A stretch of DNA of 44,243 nucleotides, taken from IMG/VR virus record IMGVR_UViG_3300023213_000527; one strand, given 5' to 3'. Every line of letters starts with the position of its first letter. Position 1 is the stretch's first letter. The translations under genes were made by a program, and so were the position numbers. The stretch comes from a virus. Positions 2,028 through 40,444 of this stretch are shown here, one piece after another. The notes beneath the pieces were generated by a model, which saw nothing but the letters and a program-made list of their open reading frames with translations, was not told the DNA's origin and did not search any database.

Positions 2028-3713
2028 TCAATCCGACAATCCATTTCCTTGCCGTAGATCTTTGTAAATCTTGTCCATAATGTTGTAAAAATCTTTGACC
2101 TTAACAATGAAAGATTGTTGAGCTTTGACAATACCCGGACTACTAATTCCTGTGGTGTTAATGTCGGGCAATTTCACTAATCGCACAATTGCATCATCAT
2201 CTAAGAAACCTAGTATATCACTTTGAGGCATGATGTATAAAGCGCCCATAATGGCAATAATATCACACAGTCCCAACCCACTAAATTCTCCCATGATAAT
2301 TTCTACAGTTCGCAAAGCATCATTAGCAATAGCTAAATCGTGGCTTCTAATTTTCTTTTGAGCGTCCAATTGTTTTTCTACCACGTTGCCAAAAGCTTCT
2401 GTTGTATCTCGGTCAAAAGTGGTAGCGAAGGATTCGAAGGCGAACCCACCAATGTCAGGAGTGCCGGTATTAGACGCAGATTGAGCATTAAATTGACTTG
2501 CAGTTTGTTTGAGAGTGGCATTGATGATGGCCCGATCTGCCGGTGTAATGAAATCTTCTGGTAATTGACTAGATATAATAACATCTCTAACTTGGGAACC
2601 ATCTTCTGGCCCTTTGGTAGATGGAATTGGTAACCAGTAGTATTTAGACTGAATCCTTTGGATCTTAAGCTGAGCATCTACTAGTTTAGCGCACATTGTT
2701 CTAATAATATCGAAGTATTTGATGAACTGGAGCTGATCTCCCAATTTATAAGGATCATTAGCTGCCATTTGTTTAATCAACGGTTCGTCTTGAACAGAAG
2801 GCACGCTCAAAACATAGTTGGCAAAAGTTTGTCCAGCAGTTCCTAAAGTATTTTGTTGATTTTGAACTGTGAGACGATCTCGAATTACTTTTTCAATCAG
2901 AGGGCGCTTAACAAAAGTGTTTTCTCCAATCAACAAATCTGATTTATTGGGAACGAATGGAACGGCAACTCTACGTGAAGCAGGACTAACAGTGAAGTCT
3001 ATTCGAGGATCTACCATAAATGGCTTTATAAAATGAAATCTTTTGATTTTTAATAAGGAAGTGTTAGGTTTATTACCGAATTCATCAATGTAATCAGTCA
3101 GAAGCACTCTATTATTAAATCCAATCAATCCGTGCAAATCGGGGGGTGGTTCAGATTGATTTTCGGCTGAAAAATCAAATGGATCATTACTTTCTTTTGC
3201 TAAGACATTGAAAGGTCTAACATGAGAACTAGAAGAAAGTGCCAAAACACTAGCGGTAATGGTTTTATTAACAGAAAAAACTTTAGCAATATCATTGACG
3301 TATTGCTCTCGTTGAGTGCTAATAGGTTGAAAATTATTAAACGGGTTGTCCGCAATTCCAATCTTATCATCCAAGGAAATAGTTTTGTTGGGATCAAAAA
3401 TTTTGTCATATCCGGGATTATAGAATCTGATACTGTCCTTAGAAACTACTGGAAAGCCGATCAATCTATAAAACGCATGCAAACGACTTTCTTGCGGAGT
3501 TCTTTCCGCCTTTAAAGATTGAACCAATCCCGCAATAGTAGTGCCGCTCAATGTATTTAAAATAGCCTGATTAACAGGATTAGATATATTGACCACACTT
3601 CGCACTGCATCAATTTCTTGAATAAGATCTGAAAAGATCTTATCAATATCAATGTCGAAATTTTGTGGATCTTGAAAATTAGCTTGGTTAGGTATTTTAG
3701 TGGAGACTACCAT
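2028..3713 (-). CDS. Hypothetical virion/baseplate-region protein
   Basis: 561-aa ORF, start overlaps the upstream stop (TAATG); no recognisable motif. Confidence 0.6.
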   Translation of the reverse strand: MVVSTKIPNQANFQDPQNFDIDIDKIFSDLIQEIDAVRSVVNISNPVNQAILNTLSGTTIAGLVQSLKAERTPQESRLHAFYRLIGFPVVSKDSIRFYNPGYDKIFDPNKTISLDDKIGIADNPFNNFQPISTQREQYVNDIAKVFSVNKTITASVLALSSSSHVRPFNVLAKESNDPFDFSAENQSEPPPDLHGLIGFNNRVLLTDYIDEFGNKPNTSLLKIKRFHFIKPFMVDPRIDFTVSPASRRVAVPFVPNKSDLLIGENTFVKRPLIEKVIRDRLTVQNQQNTLGTAGQTFANYVLSVPSVQDEPLIKQMAANDPYKLGDQLQFIKYFDIIRTMCAKLVDAQLKIQRIQSKYYWLPIPSTKGPEDGSQVRDVIISSQLPEDFITPADRAIINATLKQTASQFNAQSASNTGTPDIGGFAFESFATTFDRDTTEAFGNVVEKQLDAQKKIRSHDLAIANDALRTVEIIMGEFSGLGLCDIIAIMGALYIMPQSDILGFLDDDAIVRLVKLPDINTTGISSPGIVKAQQSFIVKVKDFYNIMDKIYKDLRQGNGLSD

Positions 3714-5863
3714 TAATCACCTCTCCCTTCCCCCGTATCTGCTAAATCTGTCTCATCTCTTCTTGGCTTGCCATCAGTGTCACCATCTGCAGTTGGCGAA
3801 ATTGGGATGGTAAGAGTATGAACGAACTGATAAGTAAGTGATTGCAAAGTGTGAGTTGGACTAACAGTAGCATCCGTTGGAACTGTATTGGTGCAAAAAA
3901 TATTGTTATCAAAAGAAACCATGAGCGAACCAGTGCCAGGATTATTACTGGTAATGTTAGCGGTAAATGTCTTGTATCCATCATAGACAAAATTGCTAAT
4001 ATTACCAAAAGTAATGAATGCTTTGAGGCGTGAAGCTATGTTAGCTGAGACATCGGAAGATAGTCCCGAAGTGAGTGATAAACCATTTCTTTCATTAATA
4101 TTAACAGAAACTACGATTGATTGAGTAGTAAATTGAACGCTTGGAGCCAAAGTGAATGTGCTCTTGCAAGCATCAAAACCAATGCCCACCAAGGATCCCA
4201 AAGCATTATTAGTATCAGATTTCAATTTTTGGAGACAAGCATTAGCAGTAGCTTGAAAAGTGGCTACACCGTCGGGAGTTAAATTGCTACGAAGTCCCGA
4301 CAAAGCTGTCGATAAACATTGTTGCGCCGCGCCGGGATCTGGGAAAGCCACACCAGTGAGAAGACCATTTAATGCTTGACCTTTCGTTGTAATATCTCCA
4401 GCAAAAGCAGTGTTGATGAATCCTTTGTTAAAAGCTACTGATGGAATGCACCCTAAAGTGATTAAATTCTTGCTAAACAAAATTTCAGTATGTGGATTAA
4501 ACGTATATTGCACGTTAGCAAAAGTATATCCATCACCCGGTGATAAATTTGGATTGAAAGCAAGTAAATCTGGCTGATGAATAAAATTTCCCAAAGTTGC
4601 CTGATCCGTGATAGATGTAACTCCATTGGGAGCAAATCCAGTCAATATAGTGGCTCCATCATCTTCAAATCCTTGCCCTCCTGCTAAAAGAAGAACGCCA
4701 TTGTTAATCGTTTGGTTGCTATTATTAAAAGTAGCGAGTTGTCGAGTTGGTGCTTTAAGCACGATGCAATTGATGAACCGAATAAATCGAGCAGCACCGA
4801 TTCTGCCCCAATTTGATGGATTATAGAATAATCGAAGATCTAGCGTATATGCCGCTTGGTTAGGTGGAGTTTGGGCAGTATAAGAGGCGTCGGTTGGGAA
4901 GAAAATTGTCTTTGGTGCGGGAACATCATACCCATCAGTGATATTAATAAAAGCTTGAGTTTGTGTTTGGCTAGCATCATAAATTTGCCAACTTTCAGTT
5001 CTTGCATCCACGCTTAAGGTTCCAAATGGCGGTGGTAATGGTATTCCGCTATCAACTTTGACACGATTAAGATATTTGAGTGTGCCGGTTGTCAGAGTAT
5101 AAGAGTTTTTAACAATAGTAGGACAAACATCCGAAGTACAACAACTGCTACTATCACCACATGGTGGAATGGAAAAAATTAAATTTAAAATGTCTTTGAA
5201 GATCTGAATGAAAATAACAAATAGAGATAAAAGAACGAATAAATTCTGAAAAGTGCAGAGAAGTGTGCCAATCTTTTTAGAGATAGCTAAGACAGAGTTA
5301 GAATCAGCATCCTGAAAAGCTTTGACTAGTGCATTGATATTGCGCAATAGAGATTGAATCAACTTTAGAATTTGAGAAATAATATATTCGATGAGAGCGA
5401 GAAGAAGGAGAAGAAGAGAGATGATCATAATAATCATAGCGAAAATAGGAAATAAATTTAATACTGGGGGCAAACAAGTTCTGAATAACTTGATCATGGC
5501 AGAAATGAGTTTGAATGGATTGGAAATCGCACAGAGTACTTCTATAATGCACATAATAAGATTAAGAATGGGCAAAATAAGTTGATAAGACATCAAGAAA
5601 GGCATAAATTGATCTAATAATTTCATAATGCCATCATAAACATCTTTGCCCCAATTAACCGAAAGTTGTGGTTTCAAAATACCTGGCGGTATAATCATTT
5701 GAAGACTATTAAAAATATTAAGTAGATCTTCTGGGAATCCAGATCGAAAAGGAGCAATGTCTGGAAGTTGTGGACTAAATGGAGTCCCAAATCCCGGAAG
5801 TGGCGGACCAGAAGGACCAGATGGAGTAGAAATTGAAACGTCTGTAGGAGAACACGGAGACAT
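3713..5863 (-). CDS. Baseplate-region protein with N-terminal hydrophobic (putative TM) helices and beta-rich C-terminus
   Basis: 716 aa; Pro-rich start, long apolar stretches (e.g. FPIFAMIIMIISLLLLLLALIEYII), Cys cluster PPCGDSSSCCTSDVCP; follows the spike gene. Confidence 0.6.
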   Translation of the reverse strand: MSPCSPTDVSISTPSGPSGPPLPGFGTPFSPQLPDIAPFRSGFPEDLLNIFNSLQMIIPPGILKPQLSVNWGKDVYDGIMKLLDQFMPFLMSYQLILPILNLIMCIIEVLCAISNPFKLISAMIKLFRTCLPPVLNLFPIFAMIIMIISLLLLLLALIEYIISQILKLIQSLLRNINALVKAFQDADSNSVLAISKKIGTLLCTFQNLFVLLSLFVIFIQIFKDILNLIFSIPPCGDSSSCCTSDVCPTIVKNSYTLTTGTLKYLNRVKVDSGIPLPPPFGTLSVDARTESWQIYDASQTQTQAFINITDGYDVPAPKTIFFPTDASYTAQTPPNQAAYTLDLRLFYNPSNWGRIGAARFIRFINCIVLKAPTRQLATFNNSNQTINNGVLLLAGGQGFEDDGATILTGFAPNGVTSITDQATLGNFIHQPDLLAFNPNLSPGDGYTFANVQYTFNPHTEILFSKNLITLGCIPSVAFNKGFINTAFAGDITTKGQALNGLLTGVAFPDPGAAQQCLSTALSGLRSNLTPDGVATFQATANACLQKLKSDTNNALGSLVGIGFDACKSTFTLAPSVQFTTQSIVVSVNINERNGLSLTSGLSSDVSANIASRLKAFITFGNISNFVYDGYKTFTANITSNNPGTGSLMVSFDNNIFCTNTVPTDATVSPTHTLQSLTYQFVHTLTIPISPTADGDTDGKPRRDETDLADTGEGRGD

Positions 5864-5931: not shown

Positions 5932-5954
5932 TCATCTTTATATATCGAGCATTA

Positions 5955-19424: not shown

Positions 19425-20102
19425 TTAAAATAGAGTAACGTCACTTCCAATATCAATTAATCCAGCAGCATCGAGCGAACCTCTACGTGCTCCCGTATCA
19501 GCAAGTTGCTCCACGTTAACAATATTATTGCCGCTAATGACGTTAGCCACACCATTCGGACCCGCTCCAAGATGTTTAATGCCAATCTCTCCGCCAACAG
19601 CTACAGGAGTTGAGTTTCCGTTGTTTAGCACGCTGAAGATATCTTCTGCTTCCCAGTTCATAGTCTCGCTAATTACCCAATCGCTTACTTGATAAGTGTA
19701 GCTTATTTCTCCAATCCATACATTTTTGATAACGGTGGAAATTTGGCTGGACTGGTCTCGCTTCTGTTTGTCCAAAACCACAATATCAAACGGATAAACT
19801 TGACTCTTGGCATGAATAAAACCTCGAGAAAAAGCTTCTGCAATTCTTAAACGATCGAAACGAATTCGCTGACAAGTACCAGTAACGTTGGTAGATTGAT
19901 TAGGAACAGAATCCACGTGCCCATCGGTTCCAACTTCATCGATCATCCGAATTGGACGCCTCTCTGTAATAGCCAAAGATTGAACTGCACCTACTGGTGT
20001 ATTATTAACCAGAATAATAATATTAGTAGATATTCCGGTGCTGGTTTTATTAAGTCCGCTAGGCAGCGTAATTGTCGAACCAGTGTTAGGAGCTGTGGCC
20101 AT
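19425..20102 (-). CDS. Tail tube protein
   Basis: VGAVQSLAITERR...EVGTDG...DSVP and IKNVWIGEISY tube-like patterns; between sheath and chaperone; AAGGA RBS. Confidence 0.8.
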   Translation of the reverse strand: MATAPNTGSTITLPSGLNKTSTGISTNIIILVNNTPVGAVQSLAITERRPIRMIDEVGTDGHVDSVPNQSTNVTGTCQRIRFDRLRIAEAFSRGFIHAKSQVYPFDIVVLDKQKRDQSSQISTVIKNVWIGEISYTYQVSDWVISETMNWEAEDIFSVLNNGNSTPVAVGGEIGIKHLGAGPNGVANVISGNNIVNVEQLADTGARRGSLDAAGLIDIGSDVTLF

Positions 20103-20153: not shown

Positions 20154-20424
20154 AAATAGTAGAGGGCTCTCGCTTTCAAGCGAAAGATGAATGCATTTTC
20201 TCAAAAAATAATGTAGAAAAATATTGTTAACTTTCAAAAACTGTGCATAACGCGAGATATATTATGCATGAAGCTAAATTGACGAAAACCAAGTCATGAT
20301 AGCGGAATGAAAAATTGTCTGATTACGGAACGCAATCGGACATTAAACAAAAACGCGGTGAGGCGCCAATGTTAATTGGGTCATTGAAACGCGGAACTTT
20401 TGCTTTTAAGTGAAGGTAGTTCAT
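20154..20424 (+). mobile_element. Non-autonomous IS200/IS605-derived mini-element copy 2 (left boundary uncertain by ~5 nt)
   Basis: Left hairpin CTCTCGCTT-TC-AAGCGAAAG-ATGAAT, GATATAT motif, omegaRNA-like stems, right end GGTAGTTCAT; overlaps the HNH 3' end. Confidence 0.75.
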
Positions 20425-27126: not shown

Positions 27127-27494
27127 GTGAGTGAAACTTTGCGTCGTAAAAGATAAATCGGATCATGTTTCTTTTGATGGTATCTTTTTCTGGCTCGAGC
27201 CGCATTTTTCTGTTTACCTTTGATACTTTGATTATATGCTTTTCTATGTTCTATTCTTTCTTCTTTGTGGTCATATTCATATTGTTTTTTTCTAGCTAAG
27301 ATATTTGTTCTGTTTTCTCGATGATATTGTCGGCATTGTGTTCGCTCACATTCTCGACACTTTCTCTTAAAATAGGTTTTCTTAGTTTTTGCATCAAAAG
27401 ATGGCTGAAAATTATCTTTGGTTAATTCTAATAATTTTCCACATTTTACACATTTTCTAAGGATCAATTCAACTTCCCGGTAATGTATTAACAA
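27127..27494 (-). pseudogene. N-terminal half of the HNH gene interrupted by the tnpB element
   Basis: CVKCG...CRECE Zn ribbon, basic helix, ends HDPIYLLRRKVSLT at the insertion point. Confidence 0.85.
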
Positions 27495-28290
27495 AATCCA
27501 ATCTAGTGGTAATGTTCAAGTTCTGAGCAATTGGTGCGTTAGGATTAGAAATACGACCAAAATCCATGGAAAATAGAATAGCATCAATAATAGTATTAAC
27601 AGGTATCTCCCGCCGCCATTCTGTTCTCACATCTAATGTCAATGTTTGTCTAAATAGTTTGTCATTTCTATCATCAGTTTCAGTAGGAGCACTCCAACTA
27701 ATAGGCTTGATAATCAATCCAATGTCGCTCAAAGTATCAAAAGTAATATCAGTAAAACACATAGTAATTAACTCAACCAAATCATCTCTAGAGCGCAAAC
27801 TTCGTGTTTCCACATCGATATTTAAAGACCCTTCCCACGCTCCTGCAGTAATTAGAGATTTAGGTTTGCTAACTAGAGTTTGATTGCCATAACCATCGAT
27901 AAAAACAATATCTTCATACTGAACGGTGTTTTGGTTCCTATTGAAAGATATAGGAACTGAGCGCCCTGCTCCAGTTTTGACCAGAATAGCTGGGTAATAA
28001 ATTCCATCGTATCGGTAATTTTCTCCGATGAATAATCTAGTAGATAATCCTTCTTGATTAGCACCATCTTTGTTAAATAGAGTAGGAACATCAGCGCCAA
28101 GAGGAAGATCGGTATGATCTGTAGTTGCAGCAAATCCCCACACATCTTTGGCATAGTGATAGTAGCTGTCCTTAGAAAAAAAATCTCGCAAGGTAGCAAT
28201 AATCAATTCTTTTGGATACACTAACATCGAGGCTTGTACAATGTTGTGAAGCCTAAAAAGGTCACTACGGAAGAAGTTATTTGAGGACAT
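27469..28290 (-). CDS. Tail terminator / tail completion protein (putative)
   Basis: YPAILVK...SLNIDVETRSLRSRDDLVELI...LFRQTLTLDVRTEW pattern; first structural gene upstream of sheath. Confidence 0.55.
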   Translation of the reverse strand: MSSNNFFRSDLFRLHNIVQASMLVYPKELIIATLRDFFSKDSYYHYAKDVWGFAATTDHTDLPLGADVPTLFNKDGANQEGLSTRLFIGENYRYDGIYYPAILVKTGAGRSVPISFNRNQNTVQYEDIVFIDGYGNQTLVSKPKSLITAGAWEGSLNIDVETRSLRSRDDLVELITMCFTDITFDTLSDIGLIIKPISWSAPTETDDRNDKLFRQTLTLDVRTEWRREIPVNTIIDAILFSMDFGRISNPNAPIAQNLNITTRLDFVNTLPGS

Positions 28291-31200
28291 TTACCACCGA
28301 TATTTGACGAATAAGGGTGAAAAGAAAAGGGTGGAATTATTTAAATACCTTTTGAATCGAATATCCAAAGAAACACTAAAAGCATATCCTTGCCCAGTAA
28401 TAAACTGATCCGAGATGTCAGTACTACTAGCGCCCGCTGTAGTAGTATCAATCGTCATGTAAAGAGTGAATCCAGTAGCATTAGATTGGCCACCAGTAAT
28501 GATGGCAGCATGCAACGGATTGGTTGGAAATTCTAAAGCAACATCATTCAGAATATTGCTATCTGGAGAAGAGGAAACCGCAAAATAGTCTAAATTGGTG
28601 TAACTTGTTGCTGTAGCATATTTATTGAGAAACAAATAGAAATTACTATCAAATCCATTCGCTGGAATTGTCTTAGTTTCTACTGTACTGTTGAAAGAGC
28701 GCATACCCATTTTGATAAGAACAACCCTAACTCCGATTGGTAAATATTTATCCAAATTCTCTTGCCAGCCAAAAAATCGTGGATTAGGAACATCGGAATC
28801 TTGGATGTTTAAAACTTGAGACTTATATCCTAGTCCTAGCCCTGGCGCTGTCGTTAAAAATAAAGTATTGTTATCGAAAGTGGCAAAGCCGAATCCACCA
28901 TATAAAATTAATTGGGAGTTAGTGATTGGAATCGACGCATATCCGGTTTGATTCTTGTTTCTCTCCACTACCCATCGTAGCGAATTAATCACTGGAGTAA
29001 TGTTGAATTTAACTACATTTTCATCCAAAGTGACTGGATTAATGAATGGACTGTCAAAGAAATTATCAACTACCATTCCGCTAGCGCCCGTTCCATCCCA
29101 AGTAGGCACTTCATAGTTAAAGAAGCCAACATAAGAAGTGATGATATTAATTCCTCTAAAAATCTTGTTTTGAGCTACATAATTAAAAACGCCGCTAGTC
29201 AGAATTAAATGTCCAATAGCTCCTCCACCCGCGGGACCACCAGCTCCTTTAAGGATATTTTTAGTAATGGTGTTGGATGATTGACAATAAATATAACCTA
29301 CTGGGTAATTGTAAATGAAACTAACTGCACTTGGTAACATCCAATAACCAGTATTAACGGTGTTGCCAGAAATAATACTAGGCGAATCGCTACCCTCGCC
29401 CGGAGATGCAACATCTGGAATAGAATGTTTATCAGCGCCCACAAAAATAGCGTATCCATATGAGCCAATATTATCAGAACTGGTGCTGTTAGATTGAGTA
29501 TCTCCATAATTGGCTAAATAATTAGCATCATAGGCGCTTAGATTATTGTTGGTAATGTGGAGAGAAGCATCCTCTTCTTGTGAAATTCCAACATGCACCC
29601 AATTAGCACTGTTATTGTCGATAACGACTTTTCCAGATGGGTATCCTACCATATTAGTAGTAGCGCCACCACCTCCACCAAGTAATCTAGCTACCATAAA
29701 GTATTGACCGCGATGATCCACGTTTGTTATGTCATGGCAAGTATTGCCAACAATTAAGAGTTCTGTATTTTTATCGGAAGAGGTATTAACGTTGGGAACA
29801 ATATTAACTACTTTAGTTCCTACGGATACCCAATATCCAATGGTTCCACATACGTTGTTAGCGATGAGAACATTCTGAGTTACTAATCCCGGTAATCTCA
29901 TTCTACTAGAAACTGTTTTCGAAGTAAGCATGATAGATTGGTTTCTATTGCATGCATTGTTAGAGATTTTGGCGTTTAATACAATAGGTTGCGCTAATAA
30001 AGTGTTGGTCGCACTCGCAATGTTAATGATGGACACTGCAGGACGGAGATCATCATGTGCCGTATCGGTGTTAATATGATTAAATTTGCAGTTCGTAATA
30101 GTTAATCCATTCAACACCGATGTTGGATTAGATAACTCCAAATTAATAAAAGAAAACCTATCGCTGGCTACAATAGCTGGATTATAGTTGAAGGTAACAT
30201 TGTCTAAGTAAAGATCATTCAAAGTTGAAGAAACGTTAGAGTAAATATAGCCCTGTCCAGAGTTAATTAAATCAGTAGGATCATATCCAAAATCCAAACC
30301 GATGCCTGGATTATAGGTAGATTGCACTAAACTATTGATCACTCTCATACCTGAAGAAGTATTATTGAAAATAAATCGATTGAAGTTTCCAAAGAATTGA
30401 CTCTCGGAAATACGCACATTCAAACTGTTAGCAATGTCAAATACGTCTCCGGGAGTAACAGAAGGGCCTGATAACCCTCCGGGCACAATGATGAAGGTAA
30501 CAGTAACAGAGTTTCTCTCAAAGTTGAATTTGGAAGTATTGCTAAGATTGAAAACGGCACCGCCACTGATAGCAGAAACATAATTTATTGTGATAGAACA
30601 ATTTCTGATTAGAATAGCATTTCCACTAGTGAAATCAAAGATGATATTACCGGGAGGCGGAGTAGATACTGGAGCAGTATAAACTATTTGACAATTATCA
30701 AAAGTAATATTTTGCGAAGCTGCTTTGACAGCAATACCACCATTAAAATTGATGGTCATATCCTTAAAAATAATATTGGATCCAATGGTAACTAATCCAT
30801 TGAAAGTAAGAACCGCATTATTTTCGCCCTCTATCAATACAGTGTTAGGAAAATCCAACGTCAAAGAAGTGCTTATAATTCCAGAACTAATAGTGGCGCC
30901 CTTAACATCTGCTTTTCCGTTGAAAGCATTGTTATATTTGATCCAGTTGATTATTGCTTGTGGATTCTTAAAGTTGCCCTGAGAGTTACCAGATGTTAGT
31001 TTAAGTGGAAAGTTAGTATCGGCATCGGTGATGTATCTTCTGACATCAGTAATCTGCACTGAAATAGTTTGAGCAATTGAATTAACGGTGGATGCCACGA
31101 TGTAGATTGGAACTAAATCTTTTCTTTTATTGATTACATCAGAGAAAGTGCTGGCGTCCAAGAAATAAGTTTGTCCATTAATTGGATTAAAAACTTTCAT

Positions 31201-34200
31201 TAATCTATCAGGGCTATTAGGAGTCGCTAATGCTGGATCGAAATCCAACAAAGGTATTGGTTGATATTCTCCTTGATCGTTGATACATAGCAACCAGTTA
31301 ATATTATACAAGACGTTGCTGAAAGATTCATTGACCATGGGAATAACCACAGTCTCGTTACCAAGCTGCTTAACTTTTCCATTGACAAGAACCCCGCCGC
31401 CTAATAGATAAATCTGTCCGTTATCTGGATTGGGAGATGCGTCTGATAAATCAAATCCATTAATAACTCCATTAGAATGGAACAATTTTTCTGGAAGTTG
31501 AATAAAATTGATGGCAGAAGAACTAAGATCTTTTTCGCTGGTATTTCCGAATTGTCTCTCATCTCTAACTTGATTAACTGTTAGGGTGACATCGTTGAAT
31601 TGGCAGGTTCCAATTAACATAACTTCATCGTCTAGAGACAAAGTTGGAAATAACTGGAACTCGATCACCTGATTGGTAAATGAAGCCACTGGCGCATTGA
31701 TATCGAATACAATATCGATGTAATCGTTGTTAGTTTCATCCAAAAACCTAACTGTTTGTCCTTTTCTACCAAAAGTAAGCGGGCCCTTTCTGGTGAAATT
31801 GGTTCCGTCGAAAGTTGATAAATATCCATTGAAATCGCCCAATACCCCGTCAAAACTCAAAATGTTGAGAGCAATTTTAGTCACTGAGCTGAATAAATAT
31901 CCTCTCAATTTTGGAGAAACTTTGACGATGTTAAGTTTGGCTAATTCAGAATAAGTGGCTAGTGTGACATTTCCGTTGATAGTGGCGGCGCTGTTACCGA
32001 TGTTGATACGAGCGCGTTCGTGAGTGAATGTCTTTCCGTCCTGATTAACATACACCTCGAAGTGTCTCTTGAATGGGGAAACAACGGAAAAATCAGTGGC
32101 ACTTTCCTTGTTGAAGGAAACGGAATCCGAGTTAAAATAAATAGCTACTTTACTGCCAAGACTCAGAGTAGGTTGAGGAGAAGATCCGGTAGCATGCACC
32201 GAATCATAAACGGTAATATCAGTAGTAGAAGCAGTCCCACCACAGTTAACACAGTTAAACGAAACTGTTTTGATGATGAATCTTCCAAAGTTGAGTAAGG
32301 CTCCCTGTCCTAATGATTGAACTACTAGTGTTTTGCCAGCCTTTAGATTAGAGGTGGAAAGGTCTAATGGAATACGATAGGTAGTTTCTACTCTTCCGGT
32401 AGGAAATGGTCCCGGAAAGATATTTTGATTTTGCAAAGTAGCTACCCAATATCCATCTCCATAGCCATCTAAAGCTTGTCCAATATCCAATGCCAAGCTA
32501 TCTCTTTCAATGCCATTGACATAATAATTGTTTCTCTTGAGAGGAACAAAAATGATAGTTGGAACTTGAGAGGCTTGTGGTGATCCATAAGAAGTCAAAA
32601 AGGGTGGGCTAGCAATGTTACCACCAAAGGGACCAAATCCAAGTGGATCGGGAGCCACTAAGTTAGCGCCCACTGGAAAAATTCCAACCACGTTATTAGG
32701 AAATTGAAGGTTAGTGGCATTCTGATCAAAAGCGCCATTAGGCGTGACCACTGCACTCAATACGGAGAAAGAGGCGTTGTTATATGGTTCAGCTAGCATA
32801 ATGCCGAATTCTCCCTGATAAGAGAAGGCAATAAATCGGTAATTGAATCCAACAGTTCGAAGAGCGTTATTGGTTGCTTCTACCACAGTATCGATAGTAT
32901 ATTTTCCGGGAGTAGTACCACGGTTTCCGGTAACATCAATGCCGGGCAAAATAAAGTAACCATCCTGAGGCGATCCATCTGGATACAACGCCAAATATAA
33001 CAAATAATGAGAGGCGTCTAAATGGTCTGCGTTAAAACCAACACCAATAGCTTGGGCACCACGAGGCTGACCAATAATTAAACTTGGAATTTCAGAAAAA
33101 GCGTTATTAGCGGGAGCAATAGCTAGAACACCTTGTTTTTTATTGTTGAATAATGGACGATCAATTCTAGCAGAAGCATTACGCGAACTAAATGGGTTTT
33201 TCCCAGCAATCCTCACAACATATTTCTTATTACCGCCACTTTGGATGTATTTTTTCTCTTTGATAACAAAAGCTAGCAGTTGTGATCCATAATTGATTCT
33301 AATGATGTCACCAATTTTAACCAAAGCAAATTTCTCATCAAAAACGTTGGAAGCTATATCCGCAGCTGCTGGCATGAACTCTACAATATCATCACCAGCG
33401 TTAATGTCATCGAATGGGCTTGTATTATAGCCATCGTTCAATAAATGAGCGAATGCAGGGGTTGGTGGAATGATAGGTTGTCCATAGCCATCTGCAGCGA
33501 GAGATGAAGACCGAGAAACCCGAGAAATGCCATTAGTATAAAGATTCTGAATGCGAGTTCCAAATAGGAAAATGCTAGCACTATCAATGAAGGTAGCAAA
33601 TGCTTGCAAATCCTGAACGTTTTGTGGAATTACCTGAAAACGGGCACTATTTAGAAAAATACCGCTAGCGAGATGTCCGTAGTTAGAAGGATATACTGAT
33701 CCGTTGTTAGTAGTAACTGAGCTAATAATACCGAACGGAGAACCATCAGCGAACTGGTGAGCCAATAACTCATTGTTCATATCATTGACAGCGGAGAAAG
33801 CGCTGGTCGGATCTCTTAACAAACCGAATTTGTTCTTGATGAGTTTGCTAGGATCGCTAATCTCATCAATTCCATCTAAAGCATGGCGATAAATAGCGCC
33901 GATTAAATGCGGTTCTAATTTAGAACCACTAACTGAAATCCAGCCCAAAGCCACATTAACGTTATTAGACAAATCTCGAATATAGTTAAAAAGATCCTGA
34001 GTTCGATGATCCAACATTAACTTGGATTCTGGAATCCCAGCATTAGCGGCAATTTGACCTTGAGTAATGGGAAGGGTAACCAAACCAAGACTGGTCAGAG
34101 CAGATGCTTTAATGTTTCCAGCAGCATCCAAAGCAACGCCCAAACGCAGCGCTAAGGAAGTAGCTGATCCTGCGATATTAGTGCCGAGTGCGTTTTCAAT

Positions 34201-34314
34201 AGCAAAAGTGGCATCGCGCAAACTATTGATAGCAATATCCCCTATCTCCGTGAGATTGGAATTTATAGGCGGAAGATCCGTATCCGTATCAATGTTAGTA
34301 GGAAATTGGGTCAT
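28291..34314 (-). CDS. Large virion protein with parallel beta-helix C-terminal half (fibre/spike/collar-like)
   Basis: 2007 aa; N-terminal FPTNIDT...INSLRDATFAIENALG, many (I)xxN-x-C/ITNCKF beta-helix repeats. Confidence 0.65.
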   Translation of the reverse strand: MTQFPTNIDTDTDLPPINSNLTEIGDIAINSLRDATFAIENALGTNIAGSATSLALRLGVALDAAGNIKASALTSLGLVTLPITQGQIAANAGIPESKLMLDHRTQDLFNYIRDLSNNVNVALGWISVSGSKLEPHLIGAIYRHALDGIDEISDPSKLIKNKFGLLRDPTSAFSAVNDMNNELLAHQFADGSPFGIISSVTTNNGSVYPSNYGHLASGIFLNSARFQVIPQNVQDLQAFATFIDSASIFLFGTRIQNLYTNGISRVSRSSSLAADGYGQPIIPPTPAFAHLLNDGYNTSPFDDINAGDDIVEFMPAAADIASNVFDEKFALVKIGDIIRINYGSQLLAFVIKEKKYIQSGGNKKYVVRIAGKNPFSSRNASARIDRPLFNNKKQGVLAIAPANNAFSEIPSLIIGQPRGAQAIGVGFNADHLDASHYLLYLALYPDGSPQDGYFILPGIDVTGNRGTTPGKYTIDTVVEATNNALRTVGFNYRFIAFSYQGEFGIMLAEPYNNASFSVLSAVVTPNGAFDQNATNLQFPNNVVGIFPVGANLVAPDPLGFGPFGGNIASPPFLTSYGSPQASQVPTIIFVPLKRNNYYVNGIERDSLALDIGQALDGYGDGYWVATLQNQNIFPGPFPTGRVETTYRIPLDLSTSNLKAGKTLVVQSLGQGALLNFGRFIIKTVSFNCVNCGGTASTTDITVYDSVHATGSSPQPTLSLGSKVAIYFNSDSVSFNKESATDFSVVSPFKRHFEVYVNQDGKTFTHERARINIGNSAATINGNVTLATYSELAKLNIVKVSPKLRGYLFSSVTKIALNILSFDGVLGDFNGYLSTFDGTNFTRKGPLTFGRKGQTVRFLDETNNDYIDIVFDINAPVASFTNQVIEFQLFPTLSLDDEVMLIGTCQFNDVTLTVNQVRDERQFGNTSEKDLSSSAINFIQLPEKLFHSNGVINGFDLSDASPNPDNGQIYLLGGGVLVNGKVKQLGNETVVIPMVNESFSNVLYNINWLLCINDQGEYQPIPLLDFDPALATPNSPDRLMKVFNPINGQTYFLDASTFSDVINKRKDLVPIYIVASTVNSIAQTISVQITDVRRYITDADTNFPLKLTSGNSQGNFKNPQAIINWIKYNNAFNGKADVKGATISSGIISTSLTLDFPNTVLIEGENNAVLTFNGLVTIGSNIIFKDMTINFNGGIAVKAASQNITFDNCQIVYTAPVSTPPPGNIIFDFTSGNAILIRNCSITINYVSAISGGAVFNLSNTSKFNFERNSVTVTFIIVPGGLSGPSVTPGDVFDIANSLNVRISESQFFGNFNRFIFNNTSSGMRVINSLVQSTYNPGIGLDFGYDPTDLINSGQGYIYSNVSSTLNDLYLDNVTFNYNPAIVASDRFSFINLELSNPTSVLNGLTITNCKFNHINTDTAHDDLRPAVSIINIASATNTLLAQPIVLNAKISNNACNRNQSIMLTSKTVSSRMRLPGLVTQNVLIANNVCGTIGYWVSVGTKVVNIVPNVNTSSDKNTELLIVGNTCHDITNVDHRGQYFMVARLLGGGGGATTNMVGYPSGKVVIDNNSANWVHVGISQEEDASLHITNNNLSAYDANYLANYGDTQSNSTSSDNIGSYGYAIFVGADKHSIPDVASPGEGSDSPSIISGNTVNTGYWMLPSAVSFIYNYPVGYIYCQSSNTITKNILKGAGGPAGGGAIGHLILTSGVFNYVAQNKIFRGINIITSYVGFFNYEVPTWDGTGASGMVVDNFFDSPFINPVTLDENVVKFNITPVINSLRWVVERNKNQTGYASIPITNSQLILYGGFGFATFDNNTLFLTTAPGLGLGYKSQVLNIQDSDVPNPRFFGWQENLDKYLPIGVRVVLIKMGMRSFNSTVETKTIPANGFDSNFYLFLNKYATATSYTNLDYFAVSSSPDSNILNDVALEFPTNPLHAAIITGGQSNATGFTLYMTIDTTTAGASSTDISDQFITGQGYAFSVSLDIRFKRYLNNSTLFFSPLFVKYRW

Positions 34315-34338
34315 GTTTTAGTTCCATATCCCGCCAAA

Positions 34339-34795: not shown

Positions 34796-36061
34796 TTAGC
34801 AGTTGGATACGTCAAACCCAATTGCACTACTTGAGCTTCCGGCATAACAATATCCATCGGAATTATAGGTAGCCATAACGGTCCATGTGCCAGAAGAGGG
34901 GAATGTATTGGGTGGCGCAGCAAATGCGCTTACATCGGCACTCGCATTTATCGTTGTACCTGCCACTCCACCAGTGCAACCAGTAAATGAAGTTGGAGTA
35001 ATACCAGTATAAGTAATAAGTTGAGTTACAGTACTGGTAACAACGTAAAATGTTCCGGATGCAAAAAATCCGGTTGTTGAAGCAACATTAATTGTTGATG
35101 CCGGTAATGATTGAGAGCCGCTAGATGGTGTAGTTGTATGTGGCACCACCCCACTACTAATGTAAGATGATCCTAAGTTAATAGATAAAGGAGTGGTGGC
35201 TGTAAATGTTACTGAACCTACTGAAGGATTTGATATTAGAGCGCTCGAAACAGTAGTAAAGAATATCATGTATTGAGATTTACAATGAGATTGAGAAGCC
35301 GGTCTGGTGGGCGCACTGGTAGTAGTAGTTGCTAATCGAAGTGCAGTTATTGGTGTCCCGGCTGTTCCACCGGGAGTGGCACTTTCAGCAAAACAAGCAT
35401 CTCCCAAATAGATAGCTTGTAGAAAATATCCATCAGGCAACACAGTGTTAGCTGGAAGCATGGAATTAGCAATACCACTTGAAACGGCGCTCAAAGGTAA
35501 ATCAACAATTTTAGTGCCGATGCTTCCATATATCCTGAACAATACATATCCATCAGGTATCGGACTACCTGCATTATTAGTTACCGTAGCAGAAACCGGA
35601 AAATTTTGGGCATAACAAAAATTACTTCCTTGAGGCAAGTTAATACTAATGTTGCTGGTTGCTAATTCAATGTTATATGGAGTGATCGGAGATTGACTCG
35701 CTCCAAAAGCACGAAGAACATTTCCCGAAGTATCAAAATCCATTACAGTTTGGAGAACAAAGGGACATGAATAAAAGGCAACAAATTCGCCGGGACGATT
35801 ATTTAAGACGGCTAAAATGGTAGCGGTGCTTCTACCGGGCGCAATCGAAGTTAATTGGGTGCATGGCAAAGTATATCCATCAAACAAATCTTGAATAACT
35901 ACATAGCCATCAGGAGAAATATATCCATCAACTTCTACGGTAAAGGCAATTAAACTTTTACAAGTAGCTGTTCCATTAGGAGGGCTAATATTAGTGATGG
36001 TAGTGGTAGTAGGATAAACATTGATCCTAGGCATTAGCATCATTCCGCGCCCAATTGACAT
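34796..36061 (-). CDS. Ig-like (Big_3-type) repeat virion protein
   Basis: Ser/Thr-rich beta repeats with GxVxF and AxYxGD motifs; six DGY motifs. Confidence 0.6.
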   Translation of the reverse strand: MSIGRGMMLMPRINVYPTTTTITNISPPNGTATCKSLIAFTVEVDGYISPDGYVVIQDLFDGYTLPCTQLTSIAPGRSTATILAVLNNRPGEFVAFYSCPFVLQTVMDFDTSGNVLRAFGASQSPITPYNIELATSNISINLPQGSNFCYAQNFPVSATVTNNAGSPIPDGYVLFRIYGSIGTKIVDLPLSAVSSGIANSMLPANTVLPDGYFLQAIYLGDACFAESATPGGTAGTPITALRLATTTTSAPTRPASQSHCKSQYMIFFTTVSSALISNPSVGSVTFTATTPLSINLGSSYISSGVVPHTTTPSSGSQSLPASTINVASTTGFFASGTFYVVTSTVTQLITYTGITPTSFTGCTGGVAGTTINASADVSAFAAPPNTFPSSGTWTVMATYNSDGYCYAGSSSSAIGFDVSNC

Positions 36062-37446
36062 TAGGCTCCTGAATTGCTAACAATGCTAACTTGAGTAACT
36101 GAAAACCAACTAATAGTATTAGCTCCTCTGCCACTCAAAACGGACACAGACGTGCCAGATCCAGTCAAAACAATAGTAGGTATTGGCCAAATTCCAGCAC
36201 CGGGGGTGAATCTAGGATCGGAAGAAGTTGGAGTTGAGCTTCCAACGCTAGTAGCCGGACTGCTTCCAGCATTTCTAGTAAATCCAATGGTGAAATTGAA
36301 TTGAGCAGCATCATTAGTAGTGATGTCTTTGCCTTGTATAATAACATCTATTCTCGTAGTGGCATTATCGCTCAAAGCAAAAGATCGCATCGTGACCGAA
36401 GTCATTGGAGGGGATTGCGCAAAATCACGATAGGTAATTGTTTGTTGTCCATTAGTTCCCCAAACGCTTGGATTAGGGACGGAACCTACCGCAAACTGAG
36501 TTCCATTGGATTGCTGAACCCACAACTGTCCCCCATTAGAAAACACAACGGTGCCATTATTAGGAGGAGTAACCGGTATGGTTCCAAAAGATCCATAACC
36601 ATCATTAAAAAGCACATCTCGAATATAGATAACACGATCTCCAGACCCAGATGGCATATCCGTCGATGTTACGTTGCCCGATCCAACTAATGATAAAATT
36701 CGTTGTCCAGGAAGGACTTCATTAAGTTGCACCAAAGTATAACCATCTAATTGAAGCTTAGCACCACCTCTTACTGCGCCTAAACCACTGACACGTGTTC
36801 CACCAGAAAGAACTACGTTACCACCATTACCTCCCGAAAGGCTGGAAGCTTGGGCTCGAATGGTAAAATCAATGCCATTTCCAGATGAATTAGTTGTTTG
36901 AGTTAATAATGGAACTGTTCCAAGTCCAAAGTTGATAGTGTTGCAAACAGCACTCACAACTCCGGATGTTCCAGTAAGACCAATAACACGTTGCAAAACG
37001 TTGGTTCCAGATAAGTCTCCATTAGCAGAAAAAGCATTAAGCGAAGGAGATGGTCCCCAAGCACTTCCATTCCAAGTAAGAACATCATTCAGATTAGGAA
37101 CTAATGTGTTAATGGGCTTGCCTTGAATTTGAGTCACCACTACGTTAGTAGCGACTCCTCCGATGTCTCCGGCCAATTGAACAATGCCCAAGCTAGAAGT
37201 AGTGGCATTTGGAACAGGTGGAGGATTTATTAGATTAGATAAAGCATTCAAAGCACCTTGAACAGTAGTTTGAAGACCATATCCATCAAAAACTAATGCT
37301 GGAAAAAGATCAATATGAGTTGCGTTATGACGAAATGCCTTTCCCTCAATATGAAGCTCAAAATCATAGCGATCCGTTGCCAGACGGCCAGGGTTGCTGA
37401 CTGGATTATAGGTAGGAGCGGGCAGAATGGGAGGAGGATTAGTCAT
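36061..37446 (-). CDS. Tail fibre-like virion protein
   Basis: ATTSSLGIVQLAGDIGG, NDVLTWNGSAWGP, GDLSG, GGNGGNVVLSGG fibre-type repeats. Confidence 0.65.
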   Translation of the reverse strand: MTNPPPILPAPTYNPVSNPGRLATDRYDFELHIEGKAFRHNATHIDLFPALVFDGYGLQTTVQGALNALSNLINPPPVPNATTSSLGIVQLAGDIGGVATNVVVTQIQGKPINTLVPNLNDVLTWNGSAWGPSPSLNAFSANGDLSGTNVLQRVIGLTGTSGVVSAVCNTINFGLGTVPLLTQTTNSSGNGIDFTIRAQASSLSGGNGGNVVLSGGTRVSGLGAVRGGAKLQLDGYTLVQLNEVLPGQRILSLVGSGNVTSTDMPSGSGDRVIYIRDVLFNDGYGSFGTIPVTPPNNGTVVFSNGGQLWVQQSNGTQFAVGSVPNPSVWGTNGQQTITYRDFAQSPPMTSVTMRSFALSDNATTRIDVIIQGKDITTNDAAQFNFTIGFTRNAGSSPATSVGSSTPTSSDPRFTPGAGIWPIPTIVLTGSGTSVSVLSGRGANTISWFSVTQVSIVSNSGA

Positions 37447-37468
37447 TCAAATCTCGATTGTTCAGATA

Positions 37469-38449
37469 TTATACGGGTTTATTCGCTTTTGATTTTCGTT
37501 GATGCATTTTGATAACAGCCTCAATGCGCACAAAAGGCAAATCCATTTTTTCTGCAATCTTCTTGTATGTATGCTCTTTGCTGCTATGCAGCTTTATAAT
37601 TGTGTCTTTTTGTTCTTGTGTTAGATATTTGCTTTTGTTTTGTTTCACTTCGTTCCAATAACGCAATATATACCGTATAGTCTTTTCTTCTATGTCAAAT
37701 TTATCTGCCAAGTCACGCTTCAAAAAATTTCCAGTAGCGTAGAGTAATACAATTTGATCCCTTTGTTCATCAGTTAATTCTCGGCTAAGATTTTGTTGAA
37801 CGGCTATTTTGAGTTTTTCTTTTGTTTCATTAGAGATAGGATGAGGCGCACTTGGGTTTTGTTGTTTGGTGACTGATATTTTCTTGCCACGTGCAATTCT
37901 TTTTTCAGGTGCTTCAATTCTACCATACATACCATTGTTTTGTCCAGAATTGGCAATAGAAATCTTTTCCTTCGCTTCATCAGTATGTTTCCTGCCAGTA
38001 TTGGCGGCAACGATTGCCTTTTTATGTTCTTCCGTTAGTTTTCTTCCAATGCATGGATGAGGGTGCGTTTTCCAAAATTTTCGCATGTATTCTGAATTTT
38101 TACGTTTTTCTTCATCGGTTTTTATTATACCAGATGGGCCCTCTCCGCCACTGGTAAGATTATACCCCAATTTTCTATTGTTTGATTGATAAATTCGTAT
38201 CCAATTTTTTTCTCTAATGAACGCTTCTTCTTCGGTCTCACAATGCTCGATAACATCAAAAGAAAAATTCTTTTTCCCATACTTTTTGAGAGCAGCATGA
38301 ATATAATGGAACCCATCATAATTTTCGCCATACTCAACGATATACCAATGTCTATTCCATCGCGTCTCTGGATCATTAGCTTTACCAATGTAAATCTTGC
38401 CATTAATATTATTAATTATTTTATACACATGCGATTTGCTCATGACCAT
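37469..38449 (-). CDS. GIY-YIG homing endonuclease (Seg-like) with NUMOD3 and HTH repeats
   Basis: HVYKIINNINGKIYIG, R, E and GYNLTSGGEG motifs; GRKHTDEAKEKIS repeats. Confidence 0.9.
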   Translation of the reverse strand: MVMSKSHVYKIINNINGKIYIGKANDPETRWNRHWYIVEYGENYDGFHYIHAALKKYGKKNFSFDVIEHCETEEEAFIREKNWIRIYQSNNRKLGYNLTSGGEGPSGIIKTDEEKRKNSEYMRKFWKTHPHPCIGRKLTEEHKKAIVAANTGRKHTDEAKEKISIANSGQNNGMYGRIEAPEKRIARGKKISVTKQQNPSAPHPISNETKEKLKIAVQQNLSRELTDEQRDQIVLLYATGNFLKRDLADKFDIEEKTIRYILRYWNEVKQNKSKYLTQEQKDTIIKLHSSKEHTYKKIAEKMDLPFVRIEAVIKMHQRKSKANKPV

Positions 38450-38479
38450 ATGTCATAATATGTATATGAGGGACGATAT

Positions 38480-40444
38480 CTATATTATAATGTTATGAGT
38501 ATGTCCCAAAGTTTCAATAACTGTTAATTTACCAGTTCCAGCATTAAAGAAAACATTATGATTATGTCCTTGTGAAACCGATGTAAGTTGATTCCATTTG
38601 GACGGATTTGTTTCATTCTTCGTAACAACGTGCGTATGTGGTGGTATTCCAGTAGTAAATCCAATACCAGTATTGAATTTGGATGGGAACATCGCAGTGT
38701 TACGAAACACCGGTATCTGATAGATTGGATCGAATTTCCTAACTCGAAATGTTTTTAGATGTTGTCCGCCATCTAAACCAAGAATAGTATCATTTCTAGT
38801 AACGTCAGAAACTTCATATCGAAAACTTTCGTTGTCATTTTGATCAAAGATTACTAATACATCACGTGTTTTGATTGTCGGAACTGTCAAAGTCCAAAAA
38901 TCTACTGGAAATTCAGATTCTAACCCAGCTTCTCGCATTCGGAGATTTTCTGCTACTGGAGATGGGCGCACTAAAATTCTTCCATCAGAACGACGAGGAT
39001 TAAAATATTGATCCCACCCCACCACAAATTTAGTGCCTAGGCATAGACTACACCGATCATCAGGATATTCGCTCGACGGTAAATAACAGGAACACGTAAT
39101 GCCTGTCTGAACTCTCTTTATCAGAACAGCTGGTCGTCCCGTAACTGATAATAAAATATCTTGACGTTGAGTATTATGATCCTGCAAAGAAAATCCGCGA
39201 AGAATGTTGAAATTGCCAAATTTATCAATGCATCCCATCTCTCCACCAATATAGCTTCCAACACAAGTTCCATTCAACAACTGAACCGGATCGGTTCGAT
39301 GATAACCTGCAAAATCATACATTGGAAATTGAACATTAGCTGCATCCGCTCCTGTTAAGTCAGTTGATAAAATATCGGTATTAACCTGATGATACCCATC
39401 GACCAAGTTGAAAGCGTGATTGGGAAATTCAAATCGAGATTGACATGCAAAAATTCGATCAAAAGCTTCCTCTTCTTCATCGGCCCACAAAACCACTGCT
39501 GGATCCTGAATGAAGTATCCATCAAATCCTGCCACAGTGTGCGAACTGATTTTAGTGTTGTCGAAGCCTCGTCCATTTGTTCCTACAATCGCACCAGATA
39601 CCTGAACAATAAAACCATCACCTTGTCGAAAAGCTGGAGAGGTTTCTTGGATAGAAAAACTTAAGATTCCATTAGATACCACTTGATTGTTAGCTGTCCA
39701 GACAAATTGATTTCCAGAACTATCTACTTTACTTCCGGAAATGGAACCAATAGCAATGAATTCGGCAGTTCCAGCTACTGGATTGTTTTGAGAGTCACGT
39801 TGAACCCAAAAACAACGAATAGTCCATGTTTCCGCGGGTGCAGCAGTGGTAAATAGTGCCAAATTGTTGATCTGCCCACCTCCAACATTGGTATTAATAG
39901 GTGCCCAAAATTGCCCGTTGCTTTGTAGTACCAAAGAAGCATTGAGGGAAGAGGTTCCGCCAGCTACGATCAGGTTGTTATTAACAGTATCAACGGCGGT
40001 GTATTGAATTAATTCTACACCAACTTTGATGACACCAGTGGGAGGAAAGCCAGTAACATCCAATAACGGAATCGACATGTCGGTAGCTCCAATGTCGTGA
40101 CGGAGCAAACTTTGAGGGTAGAAGCGCAAGTTATCATGTGCTACAGGTAAAAGAAGTAGATTATAAAGAAATGGATCATATTCTAACGGACGAACCGAGA
40201 AGAAATATTCTTGTCCCGGTATTAGATTAATGATATTGACATTTAAGGAAGAGTCGATGGAAACAAATTTGCGTCCTTCGGTAAAGACATTTTCTTTAAC
40301 GGTAGCGTAATAAATATTGTAAGCAATCTGATTGGTCTTAACTTTGGGAAGGGCTTGCCACCAAGTTAAGTTAACGGTATGCCCCTCGCCCAAACTTTGA
40401 GTGTCTCTAAGTCCGACATTTACTGGATTAGGATAGAAAGCCAT
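38480..40444 (-). CDS. Neck / head-closure protein (putative) with FN3-like N-terminus and His-rich C-terminus
   Basis: YNIYY...LIPGQEYFFSVR (FN3-like); CSC...CSLCLGT Zn site; HTH/HNH/HTH tripeptides at the C-terminus. Confidence 0.55.
   Translation of the reverse strand: MAFYPNPVNVGLRDTQSLGEGHTVNLTWWQALPKVKTNQIAYNIYYATVKENVFTEGRKFVSIDSSLNVNIINLIPGQEYFFSVRPLEYDPFLYNLLLLPVAHDNLRFYPQSLLRHDIGATDMSIPLLDVTGFPPTGVIKVGVELIQYTAVDTVNNNLIVAGGTSSLNASLVLQSNGQFWAPINTNVGGGQINNLALFTTAAPAETWTIRCFWVQRDSQNNPVAGTAEFIAIGSISGSKVDSSGNQFVWTANNQVVSNGILSFSIQETSPAFRQGDGFIVQVSGAIVGTNGRGFDNTKISSHTVAGFDGYFIQDPAVVLWADEEEEAFDRIFACQSRFEFPNHAFNLVDGYHQVNTDILSTDLTGADAANVQFPMYDFAGYHRTDPVQLLNGTCVGSYIGGEMGCIDKFGNFNILRGFSLQDHNTQRQDILLSVTGRPAVLIKRVQTGITCSCYLPSSEYPDDRCSLCLGTKFVVGWDQYFNPRRSDGRILVRPSPVAENLRMREAGLESEFPVDFWTLTVPTIKTRDVLVIFDQNDNESFRYEVSDVTRNDTILGLDGGQHLKTFRVRKFDPIYQIPVFRNTAMFPSKFNTGIGFTTGIPPHTHVVTKNETNPSKWNQLTSVSQGHNHNVFFNAGTGKLTVIETLGHTHNIII

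Follow-up and report, generated by a model that had tools for sequence, protein, structure and literature searches.

Several described glycosylation systems mark their targets with a short sequon, among them Campylobacter PglB (D/E-X-N-X-S/T), the O-glycosylation of Bacteroidetes (D-(S/T)-(A/I/L/V/M/T)) and the cytoplasmic NGT (N-X-S/T). Tyrosine-linked glycans occur on the S-layers of Paenibacillus and Thermoanaerobacter. In mycobacteriophages, phage-encoded glycosyltransferases (GTs) reportedly glycosylate the virion, and Freeman and colleagues are said to have demonstrated the glycans chemically, in 2023, on capsid and tail-tube subunits. Further precedents are the tyrosine GlcNAcylation of Rho by Afp18 and YeGT (PMC4518317, PMC11152714), the tyrosine-linked deoxyhexose disaccharide of cacaoidin (10.1101/2020.05.20.105809), and the capsid of the chlorovirus PBCV-1, to which GTs encoded by the virus itself add glycans at atypical sequons (PMC9614988, PMC7019647). 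Here we describe the tripeptide Asp-Gly-Tyr (DGY), which is enriched in the outer virion proteins of an uncultured clade of huge phages. The sequence analysed, hereafter the window, is a stretch of 44,243 nucleotides that forms the terminal 44 kb of the 118,039-bp single-contig virus record IMGVR_UViG_3300023213_000527 (CheckV completeness of the contig, 28%) and encodes a contractile-tail module on the minus strand. A probability of about 0.45 is assigned to the reading that DGY is a selected surface tag with a functional tyrosine hydroxyl, most plausibly a Tyr-O-glycosylation sequon for a phage-encoded GT4 enzyme.

The locus resembles mycobacteriophage virion glycosylation in having GT genes in or next to the structural operon, and in the proposed glycan coat, made in the cytoplasm, on virion proteins. 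It differs in that the system here is predicted from sequence, that the tube and the major head proteins are without DGY, and that the putative acceptor is a strict Asp-Gly-Tyr scattered over the outer tail proteins of huge myoviruses. In common with the sequons of PglB, Bacteroidetes and NGT, a short motif of three to five residues, often with Asp first, marks many unrelated targets; DGY occurs in at least ten unrelated proteins, with no extended context and with repeated gains, the kind of over-representation by which sequon systems are recognized. Those systems have Asn, Ser or Thr acceptors and oligosaccharyltransferase (OST) or GT41 enzymes and are mostly periplasmic, whereas the candidate acceptor here is Tyr, the enzymes are of the soluble GT4 and GT2 types, and the targets belong to a virion assembled in the cytoplasm. 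The Tyr O-glycosylation precedents (Afp18/YeGT, cacaoidin and S-layers) indicate that cytoplasmic GTs can use the tyrosine hydroxyl and that the glycans can hold 6-deoxyhexoses of the dTDP-glucose 4,6-dehydratase pathway; however, none of them uses DGY, none is a phage virion system, and their enzymes are not detectably related to the GT4 described here. PBCV-1 is likewise a large virus, with its own cytoplasmic machinery, as is proposed here, and with a non-canonical short acceptor motif, but it infects eukaryotes, and its glycans are N-linked to the capsid protein at different motifs. A literature search found no paper combining ‘DGY motif’ and ‘phage’.

The window contains 21 DGY tripeptides in seven proteins, where the composition of each protein predicts 1.65 for the window (Poisson p = 1.5e-16) and 0.71 for the seven DGY-bearing proteins alone; the remaining 25 open reading frames (ORFs) have none. 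Of the 8000 tripeptides DGY is the strongest outlier, with a p value nine orders of magnitude below that of the runner-up (~3e-7). Shuffling residues within proteins 1000 times gave a mean of 1.67 and a maximum of 6, the first-order Markov expectation is 4.1, and in 100 shuffled proteomes no tripeptide approached the p value observed for DGY. The whole contig has 43 DGY, against 4.2 expected from composition or 8.75 from a dipeptide (Markov) model, and 38 of the 43 fall beyond 58.8 kb, in its structural part, for which the expectation is 2.24. The dipeptides DG and GY are mildly enriched in themselves. The sites are written with eleven different codon triplets, in the proportions of general genome codon usage, and the degenerate sequence GAYGGNTAY occurs 43 times in sense frame 0 on the contig, with 4 other-frame sense and 4 antisense occurrences. 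This combination of ordinary codon usage and enrichment in the sense frame only places the signal at the protein level and rules out a DNA-level repeat or a restriction-like site. The enrichment is real and strong, at 10–17 times above chance. An initial annotation of the window had listed the same seven proteins with the same counts and had proposed a protein-level motif, and both points hold, the excess persisting after correction for composition, dipeptides and shuffling; its 21 sites nevertheless understate the extent of the signal, as three giant baseplate/fibre proteins encoded just upstream of the window hold 7, 8 and 2 DGY, which adds 17 sites.

The exact tripeptide stands apart from its variants. 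On the contig, observed and expected counts are 5 versus 5.4 for NGY, 4 versus 3.5 for EGY, 9 versus 6.8 for DGF, 2 versus 1.5 for DGW, 5 versus 5.0 for DSY and 0 versus 4.0 for DAY; D-x-Y with any non-Gly middle residue is at chance, and the permutations YGD, GYD and YDG occur 6–7 times each versus 4.2 expected. Within a 35-member family of an 1182-residue fibre protein encoded upstream of the window, DGY occurs 184 times and its five permutations 3–12 times each. Pooling 96 non-redundant sites over relatives revealed no strong flank preference (the highest being Thr at −1, 2.3-fold, and Gly at +1, 2.2-fold), no hydrophobic periodicity in the flanks, and no Asp/Asn enrichment at −2 or −4 of the kind that the DxDxDG pattern of EF-hand and dockerin loops would produce. 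Such a loop calls for Asp or Asn at −2 and −4 relative to DG, followed by an acidic residue at loop position 12, six positions past the Gly; with no enrichment at −2 or −4 and only a few sites in loops of this kind, calcium loops were rejected as the source of the bulk of the sites. Isoaspartate formation, which the initial annotation had mentioned, is disfavoured because NGY, the more isoaspartate-prone sequence, is at chance, and this reading was rejected for the bulk of the sites. An Asx-Gly type I′ β-turn, in which Asn could stand for Asp and another aromatic residue for Tyr, was also rejected for the bulk of the sites: NGY, DGF and DGW occur at about their expected frequencies, a position between two strands is found for some of the sites but not for others, and exchange of Tyr for Phe is nearly absent.

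This last property was examined in six ortholog alignments, on the rationale that a tyrosine used for packing should often be swapped for phenylalanine. Phe accounts for 336 of the 676 replacements at 161 ordinary Tyr-majority columns but for 1 of 42 at 12 DGY-type columns (Fisher p = 4e-11, by cells that are phylogenetically non-independent). Counted by column, Phe appears in 95 of 131 variable ordinary Tyr columns and in 1 of 8 DGY columns (p = 0.0012), and in columns with at least one DGY it makes up 1.7% of the alternative residues. Because Tyr-to-Phe exchange is nearly absent, the phenolic hydroxyl seems to be what is selected, and the tyrosine hydroxyl of DGY thus seems to be needed.

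Relatives were examined in approximately 150 IMG/VR loci in total. All 23 loci around sheath orthologues (45–76% identity) are enriched in DGY, mostly 5–17-fold, as are all 51 loci around GT4 orthologues and all 73 loci around fibre orthologues (38–76% identity; mostly 7–36-fold); the most distant subclade found has 6 DGY versus 0.66 expected. The relatives reach 430–480 kb and include two complete genomes, G003 (446 kb) and G005 (433 kb). Both are labelled ‘provirus’ in IMG/VR, though a search of 185,579 prokaryote genomes found no relative of the sheath. In G003, a 100-kb tail region holds 26 DGY versus 4.9 expected, and the remaining 105,000 residues hold 8 versus 11.8. Megablast of the window against cultured phages gave no match, and tblastn of the sheath gave weak C-terminal matches only, to Eggerthella phage LE2-3 and Bacillus phage G; the tail modules of these two phages, used as negative controls, show no excess (4 versus 3.9 and 4 versus 2.8, respectively). 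The DGY excess is a property of the clade, and only proteins of the outer tail, baseplate, fibres and neck show it.

All the DGY-bearing genes of the window lie on the minus strand. The largest number of sites is found in a 421-residue protein of tandem Ig-like domains (34796..36061), which has six (residues 45, 51, 61, 170, 210 and 402; for example, DNA 35921-35929). A 2007-residue virion protein of no known family (28291..34314) has five, at residues 275, 294, 451, 616 and 620, all of them within residues 275–620, with a DGYGDGY at DNA 32449-32469. Three each are present in a 461-residue fibre-like protein with a weak DUF5907 repeat (36061..37446; residues 54, 234 and 282) and in a 716-residue protein without a family match, encoded in the baseplate-proximal block (3713..5863; residues 310, 444 and 628). 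A 654-residue neck-side protein (38480..40444), which has a domain in common with the sheath (42–53% identity to sheath orthologues across approximately 130 residues), has two (residues 308 and 349). The 940-residue tail sheath (22017..24839; phrog_279, 1e-20) and a 273-residue protein without a family match, encoded upstream of the sheath gene (27469..28290) and called the ‘terminator’ in the initial annotation, have one each, at residue 417 (DNA 23583-23591) and residue 132, respectively. Apart from the sheath and a Baseplate_J protein encoded just upstream of the window, most virion proteins match no family, and the tube, tape measure, ‘terminator’ and neck roles are assigned from gene order only.

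DGY is missing from several other proteins of the same minus-strand module. The 1689-residue protein encoded at 7964..13033 matches no family and is tape-measure-like by position and size only, a putative identity taken from gene order; it has no DGY, either in its own sequence or in 17 of 17 orthologues. The 225-residue protein encoded directly after the sheath gene (19425..20102; phrog_985 ‘virion structural protein’, 7e-6), the tube by position, has none across 23 orthologues. Two tail-module proteins of 301 and 231 residues, and the major head protein of G003 (phrog_2522, 1e-77), also lack it. The few DGY that the contig has outside the tail module are accounted for by known nuclease motifs: a LAGLIDADG-type G-DGY in a 1292-residue protein (L026, contig 36132-40010), and an E-L-DGY ... 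A-F-E-H-N-G motif common to two endonuclease paralogues (L024, contig 55205-56362 and 57477-58820).

Alignments of orthologues show two classes of site, invariant islands and independent gains at non-homologous positions. To the first class belong sheath residue 417 and residue 132 of the 273-residue protein, neither of which varies in any of 17 orthologues; conservation in the ten-residue flanks drops to 56% in the sheath (protein mean, 76%) and to 62%, again under the protein mean, in the 273-residue protein. In the 2007-residue protein, whose orthologues have 3–6 DGY apiece, site 275 is retained in 13 of 13 and site 620 in 12 of 13. The second class comprises sporadic gains at columns where other orthologues have unrelated tripeptides (LGT, TAT, NAS, QAI), with 9 such columns in the sheath and at least 12 in the 2007-residue protein. 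The 1182-residue fibre family has 27 DGY columns in all, and the orthologues of the fibre-like and neck-side proteins have 0–3 and 0–4 DGY, respectively. In the 421-residue protein, P-DGY-V and DGY-VLF of the near clade correspond to P-TGT-V and TGR-VQF in the far or sister clade, a switch that needs two non-conservative replacements around a pre-existing Gly. Close pairs of DGY are over-represented on the contig (5 versus 1.6 expected, p = 0.015), and relatives have tandem arrays with a period of 3–6 residues. One fibre-protein orthologue (L100:6932-9874) has 13 DGY in 980 residues, in arrays such as DGY-x3-DGY-x3-DGY and DGY-VE-DGY-G-DGY; two of its sites lie inside dockerin-like DVNGDGY-I-T loops.

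The structural settings of the motif were examined in AlphaFold2 (AF2) models. The 421-residue protein (model m5a7384d1a788; predicted local distance difference test score (pLDDT) of 72.6) is predicted to be an all-β string of Ig-like sandwiches, for which Foldseek returned BIg/FN3 adhesin repeats; its Asp and Gly lie in a loop and its Tyr opens the next strand. The 1182-residue fibre protein (contig 58843-62391; L024:14844-18392; pLDDT 62) presents its seven DGY in varied settings: a loop (residue 542), a hairpin turn (628), mid-strand (666), a helix following a dockerin/EF-hand-like loop (758), a helix end (832) and two low-confidence loops (925 and 1013). The same protein has two dockerin/EF-hand-like calcium loops (residues 591–608 and 745–770; PF00404, 7e-6) of the form DIDGD-F-x-I-T-x-x-D, and the conserved DGY at 758 starts at the last Asp of one such loop. 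In the sheath, Pfam domains cover only residues 704–937; site 417, together with most of the variable DGY columns, falls outside this conserved C-terminal core. Insertions outside the conserved core of contractile sheaths face outward. BLAST comparison of 123-residue segments placed only 3–4 of 38 sites in a detectable repeated module with DGY in register. One repeated fold was rejected as the source of DGY on these two grounds: with so few sites in register and such heterogeneous contexts, a single fold or turn type fails to explain the motif.

Directly downstream of the DGY-rich fibre genes, on the same strand and 16–23 kb before the window, lies a block of sugar genes (contig 50.5–57.5 kb). 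From the fibre side it encodes a GT4 enzyme, a GT2 enzyme, a 111-residue ORF without a family match, an Fpg-type DNA glycosylase, a 350-residue membrane-anchored protein, a second GT2 enzyme and a short-chain dehydrogenase/reductase (SDR) resembling the dTDP-glucose 4,6-dehydratase RmlB; two homing endonuclease genes interrupt the block and flank the GT4 gene on either side. The GT4 (contig 56353-57477, same strand as the fibre genes) matches PF00534 with 39.7 bits (cut-off 26.4) and PF13439 with 30.0 (cut-off 28.5), and both GT2 enzymes match PF00535. The RmlB-like gene (contig 50468-51436, again on the fibre strand) matches TIGR01181 over its full length as the best of 27 families, at 345.2 bits and thus below the equivalog cut-off of 365.1, and the extended-SDR family PF16363 with 203 bits. 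The DNA glycosylase of Fpg/Nei type (contig 53334-54173; L024:9335-10174; H2TH, 6e-17) stands between the GT genes and is absent from this position in G003. The 350-residue protein (contig 52303-53355; L024:8304-9356) has one N-terminal membrane helix and is conserved in the sugar block of most relatives; it has no Pfam or NCBIfam match, and an ESM Atlas search returned only unnamed viral clusters.

In each of the 68 fibre loci (of 73) that extend far enough downstream, a GT4 gene lies 3′ of the fibre gene, at a gap of 100 bp or less in 11 of 37 measured loci; the most distant subclade retains it at 32% identity. No relative that keeps the tail genes without GT4 was found among these 68 loci or in that subclade. 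The dehydratase-like gene stands in the same block in most relatives and recurs in the most distant large contigs. Neither GT2 has a homologue anywhere in G003, yet the DGY enrichment is kept there, so GT4 is the candidate if one enzyme reads DGY. The best match of GT4 among solved structures is an uncharacterised GT (1.5e-12), and its profile weakly matches the structure of the PBCV-1 GT B736L (3oy2, E = 2e-4). Pfam and NCBIfam scans of the block gave only GT4, GT2 and the SDR dehydratase, with no search aimed at OST or GT41, and turned up no initiating phosphoglycosyltransferase or flippase. No ThyA-family thymidylate synthase/pyrimidine hydroxymethylase is present in G003 or G005 (the control was positive in 10 of 14 genomes).

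These observations may be read together as follows. DGY would be a short linear motif that positive selection favours wherever the tail, baseplate, fibre and neck proteins of this clade face outward. In the cytoplasm, the soluble phage GT4 would recognise Asp-Gly-Tyr on these proteins and glycosylate the hydroxyl of its tyrosine, probably with a 6-deoxyhexose. The dTDP-4-keto-6-deoxyglucose from which this sugar would derive is the predicted product of the adjacent RmlB-like dehydratase, and the two GT2 enzymes may elaborate it further in most sublineages, leaving a glycan coat over the tail exterior. The occurrence of a modification, the use of tyrosine as acceptor, the part of GT4 as reader and the function of the coat are all inferred. 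The full proposal, in which DGY is the acceptor sequon of an undescribed tyrosine-O-glycosylation system and GT4 decorates the whole tail exterior with a deoxyhexose-containing glycan, is held slightly more tentatively than the reading of DGY as a surface tag. New in this analysis are the Tyr/Phe exchange test, the heterogeneity of the structural contexts, the argument that GT4 is the only GT of the block kept in every relative, and the lack of a ThyA-family hydroxymethylase in the two complete relatives.

Much of what the initial annotation had proposed agrees with these data. It had taken the carriers of DGY to be unrelated proteins, which fits the few sites in a shared module and the differing contexts; it had asked whether relatives have the same motif, which is enriched in every relative examined, and whether the genome encodes modifying enzymes, of which three GTs and a dTDP-glucose 4,6-dehydratase-like gene stand at the end of the fibre operon. 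Its suggestion of convergent placement in surface loops is partly borne out by the repeated gains, by the outward-facing proteins and by those sites that lie in loops, but not by others that AF2 places in strands or helices. As for its proposed Tyr O-glycosylation signal, the enrichment, the preference for Tyr over Phe and the sugar genes are consistent with it, while the modification itself is predicted.

Several points weigh against a GT4-read sequon. Some DGY lie within strands or helices of well-folded domains in the AF2 models, which would limit enzyme access, and the repeated module or dockerin/EF-hand-like loops explain a few of the sites. GT4 and DGY are both present in every relative found, so the link between them cannot be told apart from shared ancestry, and the adjacency of the GT4 and fibre genes may reflect no more than a conserved gene order. 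GT4 itself belongs to the generic GT-B enzymes, and no relation to known protein-O-glycosyltransferases was detectable. Avoidance of DGY in the non-structural proteins of G003 is not significant (8 versus 11.8, p = 0.17). Other substrates for the GTs could be DNA, small molecules or the host envelope; of these uses, glycosylation of hydroxymethyl-pyrimidine DNA and of envelope polysaccharide are made less attractive by the lack of a ThyA-family hydroxymethylase in the two complete relatives and of an initiating phosphoglycosyltransferase or flippase in the scans of the block.

Among the alternatives, the one that survives best, though unlikely, is that DGY works on the surface without being modified: its many copies would act as multivalent micro-sites for direct binding, for instance to a cation, a matrix polymer or a glycan of the host envelope, with Asp giving hydrogen bonds or charge and Tyr giving stacking and its hydroxyl, or else a docking peg for a virion, decoration or assembly protein. 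The restriction to the exterior, the turnover of sites, the tandem arrays and the preference for Tyr over Phe fit a binding motif as well as they fit a sequon, no enzyme has to be assumed, and an Asp plus an aromatic residue is a pair typical of carbohydrate-binding sites. However, a three-residue site rarely yields useful affinity, the very different local structures around DGY offer no one defined pocket, no candidate docking partner was identified, and nothing in this reading accounts for the conservation of the GT4/RmlB genes that close the fibre operon.

Distinctly less probable is a tag for another chemistry or reader, such as tyrosine sulfation, phosphorylation, nucleotidylation, cross-linking or a host enzyme, with the GTs serving another purpose. 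The apparent need for a Tyr hydroxyl and an acidic residue two positions earlier would suit several Tyr-directed enzymes; further enzymes may be encoded elsewhere, the contig being 28% of a genome, and the conserved membrane-anchored protein of no known family lies within the sugar block itself. No such enzyme was identified, however, and the sites of sulfation and of kinases usually accept Glu and differ in spacing, while EGY and non-Gly D-x-Y are at chance. Isoaspartate chemistry predicts an enrichment of NGY that is not seen, and proteolysis at DGY would cut within folded Ig domains and at the invariant sheath site.

The least probable alternative is that DGY serves the structure or folding of β-rich tail proteins, as a turn at Asp-Gly from which Tyr starts a strand, inherited with shared domains, or a compositional artefact: although the Gly often pre-exists, the Ig-like protein shows just this loop-to-strand geometry, 3–4 sites share a module in register and the DG and GY dipeptides are mildly enriched, this reading is largely refuted by the specificity and Tyr/Phe tests, with the turn-equivalent NGY, DGF and DGW at chance and the exchange that is normal for structural tyrosines almost absent, and it is further opposed by the Markov expectation (8.75 versus 43 on the contig), by contexts that include helix, mid-strand and loops with aperiodic flanks, by tandem arrays 3–6 residues apart that cannot all be hairpins, and by the lack of excess in unrelated phage tail modules.

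Two other features of the window were recorded. The gene at 41056-42549 (+), the sole plus-strand gene in its part of the window, encodes a 497-residue protein with a 2H phosphoesterase/LigT domain (PF13563, 9e-11) that also matches the anti-CBASS Acb1 family (PF23474, 4e-6); on these matches it may be a candidate cyclic-nucleotide-degrading counter-defence gene. The tail operon is packed with homing-endonuclease genes, at 37469-38449 (−) and 42552-43868 (−) and in approximately eight more ORFs of HNH-like type elsewhere in the window (among them 3-752, 1216-2004, 13036-13869, 20381-21223, 21241-21990 and 24897-25595). The types present are GIY-YIG (phrog_314, 2e-41), LAGLIDADG plus a helix-turn-helix, and a multi-copy family whose members match one another and relatives at 35–60% identity.

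Were the Tyr-O-glycosylation reading correct, DGY would be a first in two respects, as a defined sequon for the glycosylation of phage virions and as a sequon for tyrosine glycosylation. It would provide a portable three-residue tag and, in GT4 alone or together with RmlB and GT2, a small set of enzymes for the site-specific glycosylation of proteins on tyrosine. Even without any modification, an exact tripeptide, gained repeatedly and kept in 10–30-fold excess on the outside of the tail in hundreds of uncultured phages, points to an unknown reader or ligand. With modification, huge phages would coat their tails with self-made glycans, which would bear on host recognition, protease resistance and environmental persistence.

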